A stretch of 59,642 nucleotides of DNA, counting the filler. It is 10 parts of 10 records of this genome, joined end to end, with 100 filler letters (N's around TTAATTAATTAA, not from the genome) between each part and the next. Parts side by side here need not be neighbours in the genome. Positions count along the whole stretch, not along the records: positions 13,144 to 19,338 come from SRR31156797_99108; 9 more parts are not named here. One strand, written 5' to 3'. Positions 7,273 through 20,413 of this stretch are shown in pieces. The first letter of the stretch is position 1. Each line of letters opens with the position of its first letter. The position numbers and the translations under genes are program-made. The notes under the pieces were generated by a model. That model did not search any database. It saw only the letters and a list, made by a program, of their open reading frames with translations, and was not told where the DNA came from.

Positions 7273-7372
7273 NNNNNNNNNNNNNNNNNNNNNNNNNNNN
7301 NNNNNNNNNNNNNNNNTTAATTAATTAANNNNNNNNNNNNNNNNNNNNNNNNNNNNNNNNNNNNNNNNNNNN
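7273..7372. other. artificial contig linker
   Basis: N-run/TTAATTAATTAA/N-run, 100 nt, stops in all six frames. Confidence 0.97.
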
Positions 7373-13143: not shown

Positions 13144-13867
13144 CATCTATCTCAAGTACCTTCAGTCCCTTTGGGCTGTCAATTGCCTCAACATCCATTA
13201 TTCCACGAAGTTTAAGGTTCCTGGCAAGTTCATAGGTTATTTTCCTGAAATCAGGATGGTTATCGATGGGAGTTACCATATGACAATCGTAGGTATCATC
13301 GACATACACCCTTGTTTCCTTTACAACTGCAAAATGACTTCCGTCACCGATCACCTCAAGGGAAATAACATTACCCTCAACATATTCTTCAATGAGCATT
13401 GAAGTATCAAGTCCTTCAAGTTCCTCATCCTCATATATTATAGAAGTCCCGACACTGCTGCTCTCACAAGGCGGTTTGACAAAATACGGAGGACTAACAG
13501 GCTTATCCCCGGGTGTGGGGACGTTGATGGATTTAAAGAAATTTTTGGAACGCTTTTTGTCCCTGCTGATGTGATAGGAATCAAAATCAAAAAGTATCGG
13601 ACATGCCAGCTCATCCTTTATGTTTTCAAGGAATTCTATTGTTTCAATGTTCTCGTTAACAGGGATGATCGCATCCATGTTTTTTGAGAGGATTCTCAGT
13701 TTTTCAGGTTCCCTGACCACGTCAAAGCAGAGAAAACTATCAACAACATTACGTATCAGGGGATTCTCCCTGCGGTCCACAAGTGTGACATTCATGCCAG
13801 CCTTGTGTGCCAGATACGTAACCTCAAAACCCTGTAGTTTCCCCCCGATTATACAGACATTGGTCAC
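13144..13867 (-). CDS. pylC: 3-methylornithine--L-lysine ligase (ATP-grasp), 3' truncated by contig edge
   Basis: IIGGKLQGFE N-terminus, FVKPPCESSS, GIMDVEAI..LKVLEID; GTGA overlap with pylB. Confidence 0.93.
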
Positions 13868-14955
13868 AATGCCACCACCGGTATTTTAAGATGTGTTGCT
13901 GGCTGATTTTTGATTATCCTGTTGAATTCATCCTGGCTTGCAGGTTCCATACCCATGGTCCTCAGGCGTCTGATAACGCTTTTTGAGTCTCTGTCCCTTT
14001 CTTCGAGTTCCCTGTCATAGTTGACAACGCCTTCAAGTGAAGAATCAGAGGATATTATTGATGTGACAACATTTGCACCTGCATTCAGACGGTGGACCAT
14101 ACCATCGATTCCCTCAAGGTCGAGAGATGCTGGTATAAGTCTGTCAGGGAACATCAGCCTGAGAACTGAGATTATCTTCAGTTCTGAGAGACTGGATCCC
14201 TGGTCCACTTCCTCAAGGGGGGTTCCTTCCTGTGGAACGAATGTCATAACACGCACCATGTCAGGATATCCTTTTTGCATTCCCCGAAGCGATCTTATGG
14301 TTGATTCGATATCATTACCAACACCAGTAAGTATGCCGTCCTCGACACAGTACCCGATGTCTCTTGCAAATTCCCTTGCATGGCTCCTTTCTTCGAATGA
14401 CTGCCCGACCCTCAGTTTCCGGTAGAGTTCCTTATCGTGTGTTTCCTGGTAGAGGGCAAGGAAATCAGCTCCGTTCTCATGGAGTTTTGTAAGTGTCTTG
14501 TCGTCCATGACACCTGGAGATATCATAATAGGGAGTCCTGTCTCTTCCTTTACTGCCCTTACGACCTCAACGAACCTCTCAGGATCATTGTGGAAATAGG
14601 GATCTTCTCCCATTGTGAGATCAACCATATGGATGTTCTCGTTCTTCACTGCCCTTGCTATGCTGCGTATCTCGTCCATGTCCAGGCGGTAGCGCTGTAT
14701 GTCGTTACACCTGTTGTAGTAACAGAAGGCGCAGTTGTTCCTGCAGTATGTTGAGAAGTAAACGAAGCTGTAGAGGAAGACCCGGTTGCCGAAGAAGTGG
14801 TCCCTCACTTTTCTTGCAACATAGTGCAGTTTCTCTATGTCCTCTTCATCTGTCAGGGAAAGAAGTTCCCTTAGGTTATCATTTGTGAGCTTACAGCCTT
14901 TTATTATATGCTCTGCAACAGTATCGAGGTCCCAGTGATCTGTATTCTTTATCAT
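13864..14955 (-). CDS. pylB: methylornithine synthase (radical SAM lysine mutase)
   Basis: CRNNCAFC radical SAM motif, DLTMGED, PASLD, GANVVTSII; between pylS and pylC. Confidence 0.95.
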   Translation of the reverse strand: MIKNTDHWDLDTVAEHIIKGCKLTNDNLRELLSLTDEEDIEKLHYVARKVRDHFFGNRVFLYSFVYFSTYCRNNCAFCYYNRCNDIQRYRLDMDEIRSIARAVKNENIHMVDLTMGEDPYFHNDPERFVEVVRAVKEETGLPIMISPGVMDDKTLTKLHENGADFLALYQETHDKELYRKLRVGQSFEERSHAREFARDIGYCVEDGILTGVGNDIESTIRSLRGMQKGYPDMVRVMTFVPQEGTPLEEVDQGSSLSELKIISVLRLMFPDRLIPASLDLEGIDGMVHRLNAGANVVTSIISSDSSLEGVVNYDRELEERDRDSKSVIRRLRTMGMEPASQDEFNRIIKNQPATHLKIPVVAL

Positions 14956-14964
14956 GATGGCACC

Positions 14965-16323
<1,359 letters not shown>

Positions 16324-16689
16324 CTAACCTTTTTTCCAATTACTTCCTAAAATCCCAGATATGCCATCATCCAGTTGTGGTTCTTGGTTTTGATTATCAT
16401 TGGTTCTATTCCTTTTTATTTTGATTATTTTAGGTTGTTTTACTGATGTATTGTATCGACTAGAACAACATAACAATGTTAGTCATCGACATATATATAT
16501 ATTGCCCATATTTGACATTATATATAGTTTTCTAGGCGGGAATCAGAAAACATCTACATATAGTTTTCTCTATTTTATGGCCATCTAGATGCCATCCTTA
16601 CATTTTCAGGTCTATAATAAATGAGAAATACCCTCATAATTCTGAATGGGAGATTGATCCTTAGCTATTTATCTTGATCTTAGTGCAAG

Positions 16690-16730
16690 ATTACAACGCT
16701 GTTGTAATAATACACTGACAATCAAATATT
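16690..16730. promoter_or_regulatory. palindromic operator ATTACAAC-N3-GTTGTAAT plus CAATCAAATATT box (copy 1)
   Basis: perfect 8-bp inverted repeat; 34/41 identical to copy at 19110-19150 with the same internal spacing. Confidence 0.7.
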
Positions 16731-16923
16731 CCAATGTAATTTTTAAAAACAATATCTCAATACTGTTTTTCTTAGATATGGGGGTCTATGCCGGCAACAC
16801 TCTTCCGTCAGTTTTAAATAAAAGTTACCAGAATAGCAATTCCGTAAAATATAAGTAGCGCACTTGATATTTGCATATAAATTTATCGTTCAGGTATTTT
16901 GCTTAAATCACTGAGGTGGTAGA

Positions 16924-17061
16924 ATGAACAAAATAATCACTTTGAATAAATACGTGGATTGTTGTGTCCGCGAGAATTCTCCCGTAACTGGAATATAGGC
17001 CGGAGCCGGCTACCCGATGGGTATGCCTCTTTCCCAGAAAACGAACCTGAGTTATCCATGA
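16924..17061 (+). CDS. candidate pyrrolysine-containing leader peptide (45 codons, UAG at codon 25)
   Basis: GAGGTG RBS before ATG 16924; MNKIITLNKYVDCCVRENSPVTGI-(TAG 16996-16998)-AGAGYPMGMPLSQKTNLSYP-TGA; the TGA overlaps the GAGGTGA RBS of the permease. Confidence 0.5.
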
Positions 17062-17070
17062 GGTGAGCGC

Positions 17071-18602
17071 ATGAGCAGTAAAGCGGATGCATCTCAGCCC
17101 GGTATTGACTGGGAACACGGTCCCCAGTGCAGTAAGAACATATGTGACCCACAGGAACTTGAGAGAACTATAGACTGGAAACAAGGTCTTGCAATAGCAC
17201 TGGGTGTTCCCCTGCTTATCCTTCCTTCTATAGGTACCTCACAAGTTATGTCTGGTCCTTTGCGATAGTCATCTGGGGGGCTACGGTACTTCTTGGATTC
17301 CTGCAGAACTTCGCTTTCGGAGAACTGGCAACAGTATTCCCAAAAGCTTCGGGTCTTCCAGGCTATACGCAGACGGTCTTTGGTTCCGATAAGGACAAGA
17401 ACAACAAAGGTAAATTCAAATTCGGTAAGTTCATCGGCGGTTTCAGCGCCTGGAGTTACTGGTTCGGATGGAGTCCTGTCCTTGCCATCTATGCTATACT
17501 GATATCTAGCTATATCCAGGGGATGGTCCCTGCACTTGCAGGTATCAATGAGACTCTACTGGCACTGGTTATTGGTGGATTCATTTTCGGTTCTCTTGCA
17601 ATTATCAATGCAAAGGGACTCAAGAATGGAGCAGCTGCCGGAGTCATTTTAGCTGCTATCTCCTTGGTACCTCTTCTGGTCATCACCATTGCCCCATTCT
17701 TTACCGGTGATTTCCAGATGTCAAATATCACAAATTCATGGTTCCCTTCAGACTGGAGTTGGGACTGGGAGCACATACTCATCCTTCTCGGACTTCTTGC
17801 AATGGCAGAATGGAGTGCTGCTGCATGGGAAACTGCTGCTATCTATGGTCCTGAGTATAAGAAACCGAATTCAGATATACCAAAGGCATTGCTTGTTTGT
17901 GGAGCAATATGCCTTGTACTATATGTACTTGTACAGACATCAGTCATCGGTGCACTTGGAGTTGAGGGAGTTCTTGCAGAACCTATCTCACCAATGCTTC
18001 CACTGGCAAACATGTCACTTGGTCCAATCGGCGCTTCCATTTCAATTGTAATGTTGATAGGTGCAATGCTTCTGATTATCCAGACAGCTTTCCTCTCATC
18101 TGCACGTTCCATATATTCAATGTCACTTGAAGGAAACCTACCATCGGTTCTGAGCAAGCTGAATAAACACGGGCATCCCATGAACGCTATGATCGCTGAT
18201 GCAGCCTTCAACATGTTCCTTATCCTTCTTGGAACACCAACGGCTATACTGGCTGCTTCTGCTATCGGTTACATTTGTGCCAATGGTATCAGTCTTTACA
18301 CCTATGTAAAGGTCAGGAACGACCCTGAGCTCTCAAAACTGGAAAGACCTTTCAAGGCCCCAAGGGGATGGAAGAGCGTTGTTCTGGCAACTACAATACT
18401 GAACACTCCTCTCTTCCTGATAGGTATAATATACCTCAACAGCCTTGAACTCGGATGGGAAACAACAGGTGTTGGCTTTGCAATGCTCTGTTTATTCATT
18501 CCTCTCTGGATATACTCCCAGCGTGAGAACAGGAACAGAATGCCTGTAGCTCATGCAGAGCACAGGGAACATGGTATACTCGACCCAGAACCGGTTCCTT
18601 AA
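17071..18602 (+). CDS. APC-family methylamine permease (MtmP/MtbP-like) with a 1-nt frameshift near 17235
   Basis: LERTIDWKQGLAIALGVPLLILPSIG continues in the -1 frame as YLTSYVWSFAIVIWG..GELATVFPKASGLPGY into ORF 17523-18602 (AWETAAIYGPEY, LERPFKAP). Confidence 0.82.
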
Positions 18603-18746
18603 GAAGAATGATAAAAACATGATACAATGAGTAATACAGGAACCTGATATCACGGATATCAGGATTCCTTTTAATATTAGCATGAAGTACTCAAAAACTA
18701 AAAATCAAAAAACTGGCTTTATTGCCTACTTCTATTTGGTGTAAAA

Positions 18747-18911
18747 ATGGAAATTGAAAATATCATTATTGTAAATTTTGCTATTGCTATTCTGGCAAGT
18801 TTTTTCATATATTCAGCGACCAATCCTCTCCCGTCAGGAATCACAGTACTTGAAACTCTGGCAATTAGTGGTCTGTGTGCTTACCTCTTTAATAACCCGG
18901 ATATTTTGTAG
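18747..18911 (+). CDS. small hydrophobic (two-TM) hypothetical protein ending in TAG
   Basis: GGTG RBS-like; MEIENIIIVNFAIAILASFFIYSATNPLPSGITVLETLAISGLCAYLFNNPDIL-TAG; readthrough would end at TGA 19011-19013. Confidence 0.4.
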   Translation: MEIENIIIVNFAIAILASFFIYSATNPLPSGITVLETLAISGLCAYLFNNPDIL

Positions 18912-19109
18912 GAAATTCGCTCTTTCTCGATGCATGTGGTGCAAAATTCTGAAAATACGGTCCTTTTGTCCTTATTATATTCACATTCAAGTGTCCATTT
19001 TTGCAGATCTTGATCTCAGATATCTTTTTGATCTTCTATGAAAAGGAAGTCAATGTTACCATGATCAGATCCATAAGATCCTAATAGTCCATTTTAATCA
19101 TCCTCTAAT

Positions 19110-19150
19110 ATTACAACGCCGTTGTAATAATTCGAGTGCAATCAAATATT
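19110..19150. promoter_or_regulatory. palindromic operator ATTACAAC-N3-GTTGTAAT plus CAATCAAATATT box (copy 2)
   Basis: see copy 1; lies about 150 nt upstream of the ORF starting near 19297. Confidence 0.7.
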
Positions 19151-19296
19151 TCTTTGCTGTTAATTAATTCACATGCAGTAGGCTCATTTTACTGAGTTTA
19201 TGATATATACGTTTTCTTCTTATGCTTAATTATAACTGATTGCTCTTTCAAGTTTCAAATTATCTACTATGGACTGGGGGCAAAAGGTCAGGAGGT

Positions 19297-19338
19297 ATGA
19301 TTATTAGTAACGAAGAAATGTTCAAAGAATTATCAGAC
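19297..19338 (+). CDS. N-terminus of a probable methylamine corrinoid protein (MtmC/MtbC-like), truncated
   Basis: AGGAGGT RBS; MIISNEEMFKELSD resembles N-termini of methylamine corrinoid proteins; only 14 codons visible. Confidence 0.45.
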
Positions 19339-19438
19339 NNNNNNNNNNNNNNNNNNNNNNNNNNNNNNNNNNNNNNNNNNNNTTAATTAATTAANNNNNN
19401 NNNNNNNNNNNNNNNNNNNNNNNNNNNNNNNNNNNNNN
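19339..19438. other. artificial contig linker
   Basis: N-run/TTAATTAATTAA/N-run. Confidence 0.97.
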
Positions 19439-20413
19439 ATTATCACCCATATCACTAATAATGAATGGCTTCTCTTCAAAGGCAATGGCTTGCTCCAAAC
19501 ATTCTTCCAAAGATGCCACAGGAGCAACAAATTCAAACTCTTCCCGCACGTCCCAAAAAGCTTTAGCCAGTTTTTCGGCTGCACCAGTTACTTCTGCTTT
19601 ATCATCGCCATATGCCATAACTACGGCACGGTTTCGTGGCTCATCGGCCCATGCGTAGCCCACCCAAATGGCAGCATCAATTACGCCTTCGCTCTTTGTT
19701 AACGGATCAACCATAGCATACAGGCTTTTACCGGGCTCTATGCGCGTACTTGTCTTCTCTCCGGGTAAAAGTACCGGAACCGGTATCCAGGCTTTGTATT
19801 TTGGTTTGCCTTTGCCGTTTTCCAACCGATCGAGTAAATTGGTTAAAGCCCGGTGTTTCGATTCAATGGCATCTTCGTGTGGTGCCATACGGTAACAAGT
19901 AATCAAATCAGTATGTTTTGCCAATCGTTCGCTGACGTTTCCGTGCAAATCCATCGAGGTTGAAATAAGCACATTGTCGCCAACAACTTTTCGTATGCGG
20001 GCAATCATATCCCCTTCCGGATCATCTAATCCCACCACACTCATTGCTCCGTGAATATCGAAAAAGATACCGTCGTAAGGCATATTCTTTTTCAGACTGT
20101 CAAGCATTTCGCCCAGTAATGTTTCATAAGCTTCTTTTGTAACAACACCTCCTGGTAGCGCATGGCCGCGCAATGCCGGAAACCATTGTGCACGTTGCCG
20201 AGTAGCAGCTGTGTCATCCATAAAGGGGTAATAAGTAAATATTTCTTCCCCCCTGCGTGCATGGAAAGCTTCAATACCCGATTGAGCGGGAGAAAAAGTA
20301 CTGGATTCGATGGCAAGGCCGCAAATGGCAACACGAGGTAGTTTGCTTTGTTTCTTACAACTCCAGCTAAAAAATATAATCAACAGGAATATTCCCGAAA
20401 TAAATTGTTTCAT
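19439..20413 (-). CDS. M81 family metallopeptidase (MlrC-like) lipoprotein, 3' truncated
   Basis: lipobox-like FSWSC; IESSTFSP, DIHGAM, DLHGN, YRMAPHED, SDMGDN motifs. Confidence 0.88.

Follow-up and report, generated by a model that had tools for sequence, protein, structure and literature searches.

We analyzed a stretch of 59,642 nt of DNA (hereafter the window), in which pieces of approximately 5-6.5 kb are joined by linkers of 44 N, TTAATTAATTAA and 44 N (N runs at 7273, 13044, 19339, 24765 and further on), so that neighboring pieces need not be neighbors in the genome. One contig, positions 13144-19338, holds both elements of interest here: a short leader open reading frame (ORF) with an in-frame TAG codon, and an APC-superfamily permease gene that follows it. 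The leader ORF occupies 16924-17061 on the plus strand and consists of an ATG, 23 codons, the TAG, 20 codons and a TGA (45 codons in total). Its first half is MNKIITLNKYVDCCVRENSPVTGI (24 codons, ATG included) and its second half, after the TAG, is AGAGYPMGMPLSQKTNLSYP (20 codons). As expected of a leader ORF, it lies directly upstream of the permease in the same orientation, with its own start codon and its own Shine-Dalgarno (SD) sequence, GAGGTG at 16913-16918 (plus strand), of which AGGT is invariant in nine of nine sequences (columns 10-13 of alignment A1). The TAG (16996-16998, plus strand) is embedded in GGAATATAG, which is identical in all nine. Downstream of it, at 17002-17034 on the same strand, is a hairpin resembling the Rfam family PYLIS_2, with a core, GGCTACCCGATGGGTATGCC, at 17008-17027 and an outer 4-bp stem formed by 17002-17005 and 17031-17034. 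The terminal TGA (17059-17061) opens TGAGGTGA, 9 nt ahead of the permease ATG at 17071, and the permease has an SD of its own, GAGGTG at 17060-17065 (plus strand). A preliminary description of this DNA, which interpreted the ORF as a pyrrolysine (Pyl)-sensing leader peptide coupled to a methylamine permease, had placed the SD, the two start codons, the TAG and the TGA exactly.

The leader has a narrow distribution. A BLAST search of 177 Methanosarcinaceae genomes returned matches in 64, with 8 covering the leader; the others matched only the Pyl site of a real mtbB, the dimethylamine methyltransferase gene. Matches of slightly different extent in three genomes (G068, G074 and G081) were considered as leaders and rejected, as they are ordinary mtbB genes. 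A covariance model of the leader, run against 151 sampled genomes of the family, scored 112-127 bits in 7 of them, with all other matches at mtbB Pyl sites and at no more than 46 bits, and it found no further, more diverged leader copies among the 151. A metagenome scan with the TAG-plus-hairpin pattern retrieved one locus only, a true full-length mtbB. We also sought PYLIS_1-type mini-leaders in five leader-bearing genomes and found only full-scoring sites (96-101 bits). Including the window, leaders are therefore known to us from nine Methanolobus genomes.

All eight relatives keep the ORF, with an in-frame TAG at the same position, before an orthologous permease, in agreement with the conservation that would be expected of such an element. 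Their layout is uniform: SD, ATG, 23 codons, TAG, 24 codons and a TGA. The T and G of this TGA are the last two bases of the permease ATG, so that stop and start overlap (ATGA). The relatives' leader is 49 codons long, and its UAG lies 75 nt short of the permease AUG. The overlap of leader stop and permease ribosome-binding site that the preliminary description had stressed is present in the window, but it results from a strain-specific 1-nt insertion, and all eight relatives have the other layout. The leader is real, conserved and under selection, and its form in the relatives is of greater interest than the degenerate copy of the window.

The permease gene spans 17071-18602 on the plus strand and is read in frame +2 from 17235 on. 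Pfam AA_permease_2 (PF13520) matches the window at 17235-18599 with 158 bits and the intact orthologue (L001) with 161 bits, against a cut-off of 27. The best NCBIfam match is a trimethylamine N-oxide (TMAO) permease model, at 206-238 bits, far below its cut-off of 690. The gene is thus an APC permease, but its assignment to methylamines comes from context only, and we refer to it as a presumed methylamine transporter. Orthologues share 89-94% identity within Methanolobus and 80% with Methanosarcina.

Two indels distinguish the window copy. One is a 1-nt insertion (CC at 17056-17057, plus strand; a single base in eight of eight relatives), which makes the early TGA at 17059-17061. The other is a 1-nt deletion near 17232-17235 that shifts the permease frame (GGATAYCT in relatives, GGTACCT in the window). 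Over 16700-17600, the Logan assembly of run X1 matches the window exactly, both indels included, with a word depth of 44.5; X1 is the likely source run of the window, so this is a second assembly and not an independent sample. Contigs of runs X2, X3 and X4, from two other studies, are without the base at 17056 and have an extra base after 17234. X1 has the TAG as in the window, and among the differences listed for X2-X4 there is none at the TAG. We take both window indels to be real, leaving an altered leader and a permease pseudogene in this strain, and the leader-permease unit appears to be decaying there. A second, independent disruption occurs in G003 (L013 / L009), in which permease codon 127 has changed from TGG to TGA.

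The sequence around the leader TAG is a copy of a genuine mtbB Pyl site with its hairpin. The PYLIS_2 model (RF02509), which was built on the 100 nt after the mtbB Pyl codon, aligns to 16996-17090 with model position 1 on the TAG (25.9 bits, E 0.001-0.008). This score does not reach the gathering score of 36, and true mtbB sites in the relatives score 108-112 bits; the leader fits only the first ~48 of 100 model positions, with '*' posterior probabilities along the hairpin core (17008-17027). In Methanolobus and Methanosarcina, approximately 30 mtbB genes share the order GG[TAC]ATATAG, 9 nt, then GGCGACCC[GAT]ATGGGTATGCC. The leader reads GGAATATAG, 9 nt, then GGCTACCCGATGGGTATGCC, its core differing from that of mtbB in one base of 20, plus a variable loop base. 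Both genes therefore have the UAG after GGxATA and the hairpin GGC-ACCC-GAY-GGGTA-Y-GCC 9 nt downstream, but mtbB is an enzyme gene of 466-467 codons, whereas the leader is a 49-codon ORF whose flanking codons are unrelated to MtbB. The leader does not lie within a dimethylamine methyltransferase gene, as the ORF is 45 codons long in the window and 49 in the relatives. At the protein level, the likeness takes the form GI-O-xGxG(D/Y/N)PMGMP, resembling the MtbB active-site loop; Pfam Dimeth_Pyl matches the leader peptide weakly, at positions 346-367 only (11 bits, E 0.14). The first half of the leader and the 5' untranslated region (5'UTR) were no more similar than shuffled sequence to the L011 mtbC start, the mtbB start or the mtbB region before the TAG. 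The leader thus carries a codon for the transfer RNA (tRNA) of the pathway, the invariant TAG in its mtbB context, and we infer that the leader UAG is decoded as Pyl, as had been proposed.

We note that the post-Pyl hairpin of mtbB is itself invariant at synonymous sites in two genera (L001 10629-12032, L011 6413-7813 and ~30 others). Its only variable base is CC[GAT], in the loop. This pattern supports RNA-level selection on PYLIS_2 within mtbB itself.

In the leader, the motif formed by GGAATATAG and the 20-nt hairpin core varies in 3 of 29 columns, whereas 76 of 102 columns vary in the rest of the leader (Fisher, 4e-10). The variation within the motif falls on a bulge, the loop and a second bulge, all among the six unpaired positions (p 0.018). 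All three changes are non-synonymous (Y/N, M/T and M/T), and third codon positions are all invariant. The pairs of the core are invariant, and the outer stem pair 99/129 covaries, being GC in six sequences and AU in three. Because the motif is near-invariant, with its few changes unpaired and non-synonymous and its third positions frozen, the constraint falls on the RNA and not on the peptide, and the comparison points to selection acting on RNA structure as such. This conservation is unlikely to stem from gene conversion from mtbB, since the leaders differ consistently at places where mtbB is invariant (TAC/AAC for GAC, and the codons after GCC).

The hairpin forms in seven of nine minimum-energy folds. 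It starts 3 nt downstream of the UAG if the outer stem is counted, and 9 nt downstream if only the core is. With a stop codon in the A site, a structure at that distance reaches the mRNA entry channel, as in recoding signals. RNAalifold also proposed a stem, ACCU/AGGU, whose pairing is retained in 92% of cells but which forms in only three of nine minimum-energy folds. A small hairpin of 7 pairs also lies in the first half of the leader (16953-16972, plus strand), where pair 50/67 is GC in four sequences, AU in four and GU in one. Folding and accessibility analyses of the leader found no alternative-hairpin switch.

Outside the motif, the leader evolves freely while remaining open. Across the nine sequences, 86 of 150 leader columns vary, and frame 0 has no stop beyond the TAG and the terminal TGA in any of them; the remaining frames contain 39 and 20 stops. 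When we permuted the variable columns, keeping the phylogeny and the invariant columns, 68 of 20000 permutations left frame 0 open throughout the nine sequences. Taken singly, the half before the TAG was open in 1116 of 20000 and the half after it in 1196 of 20000. The eight relatives have no indel across the 150 nt of the leader, and the 100 nt upstream need several gaps. The contigs of X2-X4 carry a further indel, an 18-nt in-frame deletion at 16962-16981, which removes the 3' arm of the small hairpin; that hairpin is therefore not essential. Divergence outside the motif averages 0.32, equal to that at permease 4-fold sites, so the openness of the leader does not come from slow evolution. 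Variable sites are spread over the three codon positions as 15/14/13 before the TAG and 13/16/15 after it. By this measure the leader peptide sequence is not conserved: the frame is kept across relatives while the peptide drifts, a pattern that marks an ORF in which the act of translation is important and the encoded product is not.

Two other candidates in this region were rejected. The Cys-Cys peptide that the preliminary description had offered as an alternative fell away, as CC occurs in the window only and variable sites are even over the codon positions. An antisense ORF at 16903-17184 (minus strand) is not conserved, nor is any other minus-strand frame, since five of nine sequences have stops in all three minus frames. 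Separately, the sequences in alignment A1 fall into types A (window, L012 and L022-L024), B (L014, L025 and L026) and C (L013). Between types, leader divergence outside the motif (0.34-0.43) exceeds permease 4-fold divergence (0.25-0.33) in many pairs, and within types the reverse holds. This pattern hints at recombination of the permease or at fast turnover of the leader flanks.

The gene order of M. profundi (L011) bears on the origin of the leader. There, pylS is followed by an 8-3-8 palindrome, mtbC, mtbB, ~17 nt and the orthologous permease, and the window is collinear with this arrangement minus mtbC and all of mtbB except the Pyl site. A full mtbB lies directly upstream of the permease in 5 of 11 permease loci (L011, L005, L006, L007 and L010). 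On the strength of these two observations, we regard the leader as a minimized mtbB. In the mtbB-permease pairs of the Methanosarcina loci an A/T-rich spacer separates the genes, whereas in the lineage of the window mtbB has been reduced to 147 nt. Given the gap of ~17 nt in L011, permease translation there may already follow translation of mtbB through its UAG. Downstream of the leader-permease unit lies mtbC, both in M. vulcani and in the window, and M. vulcani then has mtbB and a second permease. Leader and permease are intact in the M. vulcani strains PL-12/M and B1d.

The palindrome is also present in the window, as TTACAACGCTGTTGTAA at 16691-16707 (no strand), 233 nt upstream of the leader ATG, where it looks operator-like. 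A second copy of the perfect palindrome, TTACAACnnnGTTGTAA, lies at 19111-19127, before mtbC (two matches in the window, with 0.01 expected), and it precedes mtbC in L011 and L009 as well. It is a candidate operator of a methylamine regulon, with a putative role as a binding site. The palindrome is upstream of the leader in four of nine copies, the same four that have pylS upstream; the other five have neither. The leader travels with the permease in at least two genomic contexts. The back-to-back arrangement with pylSBC noted previously is accordingly real in the window, but pylS adjacency holds in only four of the nine copies.

In the window, pylS (14965-16305; NF007083, NCBIfam 720 bits) is full-length and divergent from the leader, and a 619-nt gap separates this minus-strand gene from the plus-strand leader features. 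It is accompanied on the minus strand by pylB (13864-14955; NCBIfam 567 bits) and by pylC, which is cut by the contig end (13144-13867; NCBIfam 352 bits). ARAGORN found no pylT next to pylS (16306-16923), elsewhere in the window or at five related loci (<=17 kb), Rfam found no tRNA within 16300-17300 at E up to 10, and a 13-nt anticodon-arm motif gave no relevant match. pylT must lie elsewhere or escape the ARAGORN and Rfam models. The contig ends on the plus strand within the start of mtbC (MFKELSD, 19318-19338), whose first 7 residues are identical to those of the L001 corrinoid protein, in which B12-binding domains are present. Upstream of the leader SD, a conserved A/T-rich box, CCGTAAAATATAAGTAG (16842-16858, plus strand), forms the 5' limit of the block common to leader-bearing genomes. 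It is recognizable by eye in the alignment in eight of nine sequences (not in L025) and is a candidate promoter element of the B recognition element (BRE)/TATA type. Just beyond the next linker, an ORF at 19391-20413 on the minus strand has a lipoprotein-like N-terminus.

Based on these observations, we consider it a serious possibility, falling just short of probable, that the leader is translated and couples translation of the permease to decoding of UAG as Pyl. The leader would be the first cistron of the permease mRNA, built around a transplanted mtbB Pyl site that brings with it the UAG, the sequence just 5' of it and, after 9 nt, the hairpin. Ribosomes would initiate at the SD and ATG of the leader. 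With charged Pyl-tRNA, they would read the UAG and continue for 24 more codons to the UGA that overlaps the permease AUG, where termination-reinitiation would feed permease translation; an ATGA overlap is a classical arrangement for this process. Without Pyl-tRNA, ribosomes would stop or stall 75 nt before the permease AUG. Synthesis of the transporter would then track the capacity of the cell for making Pyl-dependent methyltransferases. That only UAG-decoding ribosomes reach the permease start by translation, a central point of the preliminary description, agrees with the read-through frame of the relatives, which runs to the TGA overlapping the permease ATG. A signal for the leader to sense exists: in a 2026 ribosome profiling study of M. 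acetivorans (PMC13663744), charging of tRNA-Pyl rises on methylamine growth, ribosomes pause strongly at UAG when charging is low, and UAG dwell time varies with methylamine supply. Coupling, and regulation of the permease by it, are proposed here, and a regulatory role of the leader is plausible.

Several observations weigh against this interpretation. Occlusion of the permease SD by upstream sequence was sought and is not supported: the predicted accessibility of SD plus AUG is not convincingly lower than with shuffled upstream sequence (between 0.19 and 0.99 of shuffles equal or fall below the real value across nine sequences). Whole-stretch fold energies are likewise no different from shuffles (z-scores -1.6 to +0.2). 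Since the permease also has a strong SD of its own, control would be modulatory at best. Of the features that could serve ribosome hand-over, the ATGA is found in eight of eight relatives, while the window has its stop 9 nt before the ATG and the occlusion test lends no support. The TGA of the ATGA comes from the conserved second codon of the permease, so the prior for its being in frame is one in three. The half after the TAG, taken alone, is open at p ~0.06. The permease is broken in two of nine genomes (window and G003), so the leader-permease unit is dispensable. Only nine leader sequences are available, all from close relatives. Lastly, the collinearity with M. profundi shows that the leader originated as what a deletion left of mtbB.

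The leader could be a neutral relic, the drifting remainder of an mtbC-mtbB pair deleted ahead of the permease. The L011 order of pylS, palindrome, [mtbC-mtbB] and permease, with which the window is collinear minus mtbC and most of mtbB, is what such a history would leave, and the neutral rate of change outside the motif, the weak match to Dimeth_Pyl positions 346-367 (11 bits), the frameshifted window copy and the two broken permeases in nine are in line with it. However, neutral drift should not leave 26 of 29 motif columns invariant when 75% of the others vary, nor a leader that is open and free of indels in eight of eight relatives, and gene conversion from mtbB is unlikely to have supplied the conservation; we regard a relic as quite unlikely. 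The UAG context and hairpin could instead act as RNA only, bound or processed by a factor (a protein, a small RNA or a nuclease) that also acts on mtbB mRNA, with an incidental open frame. Such an element would co-regulate the permease and mtbB. It would account for selection that is visible at the RNA level only, for the unconstrained peptide (15/14/13 and 13/16/15) and for the invariance of the same hairpin at synonymous sites in mtbB of two genera. It leaves unexplained, however, a conserved SD and ATG 72 nt upstream, a frame that is open in nine of nine sequences (68/20000 permutations), a deletion of 18 nt that is in frame, and the invariance of the stop triplet and the 6 nt before it, and we consider it unlikely.

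If the leader is translated, the UAG might still be a plain stop. The first half, with its own SD and start, would then be an ordinary repressive upstream ORF (uORF) encoding a 24-residue peptide, and the hairpin would merely affect termination or reinitiation, independently of pyrrolysine. The p of ~0.06 for the second half leaves room for this, yet the context of the TAG from -8 to +31 matches a site of known Pyl decoding in an abundant enzyme, and with pylS, pylB and pylC adjoining, read-through would hardly be avoidable when Pyl-tRNA is charged. We find a pyrrolysine-independent uORF very unlikely. It is highly improbable that the product, as a small peptide containing Pyl (or Cys-Cys), has an independent function: the 49-codon frame is kept and GI-O-xGxGxPxGxP resembles the MtbB active-site loop, but there is no constraint at the amino-acid level, CC is confined to the window, and the changes in the motif are all non-synonymous (Y/N and twice M/T) while synonymous sites are frozen.

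Coupling of permease translation to UAG decoding would address the question of how methanogens that use Pyl keep its supply in step with methylamine catabolism, for which, to our knowledge, no cis-acting reader of the charging signal has been described. We tentatively put forward, as a real possibility short of an even chance, that the leader is a natural sensor of the 22nd amino acid, in which a minimized mtbB Pyl site gates translation of a transporter through a recoded stop codon, and that its hairpin is the first post-UAG hairpin selected outside methyltransferase coding. The prevailing view is that Pyl insertion needs no mRNA signal. If our proposal is true, a post-UAG hairpin does act in UAG decoding, against that view. 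According to PMC2933860, less full-length protein was obtained when the element studied there was replaced, and nothing comparable was observed in mtbB. At 150 nt, with one UAG and one hairpin, the leader is a compact, mutable module, and it would allow a direct test both of UAG read-through as a regulatory signal and of the function of the long-disputed PYLIS-type hairpin. Literature searches on pyrrolysine, PYLIS/mtbB and dimethylamine permeases returned no description of such a leader. The preliminary description is partly supported: the ORF with its in-frame TAG is conserved, and the TAG lies in a copy of the mtbB site. The stop/RBS (ribosome-binding site) overlap is peculiar to the window's strain, adjacency to pylS applies to part of the copies, and the Cys-Cys peptide fails.

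Known systems share parts of this logic. In leader peptides of the trpL and hisL type, a short ORF likewise precedes pathway genes, its completion hangs on one charged tRNA, and the peptide sequence is unimportant. Here, in contrast, the sensing codon would be a recoded stop in an archaeal host, and the likely read-out would be coupling at the ATGA instead of a terminator/antiterminator switch. The in-frame UGA of prfB, by which release factor 2 (RF2) autoregulates, is likewise an early in-frame stop that reports the level of a decoding factor, but it operates through a +1 frameshift within one gene, whereas the leader would use read-through by a dedicated tRNA and deliver ribosomes to a second cistron. 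Judged by analogy, the nearest parallel in logic is the selenocysteine insertion sequence (SECIS)-like element in the 5'UTR of E. coli selAB. According to PMC13449736, a recoding element for a rare amino acid has there, too, been copied into a leader, that of a gene in its own pathway, and provides feedback. The selAB element is untranslated and represses through SelB-GTP-Sec-tRNA (Sec, selenocysteine) beside the SD, whereas the element described here includes the stop codon and lies within an ORF.

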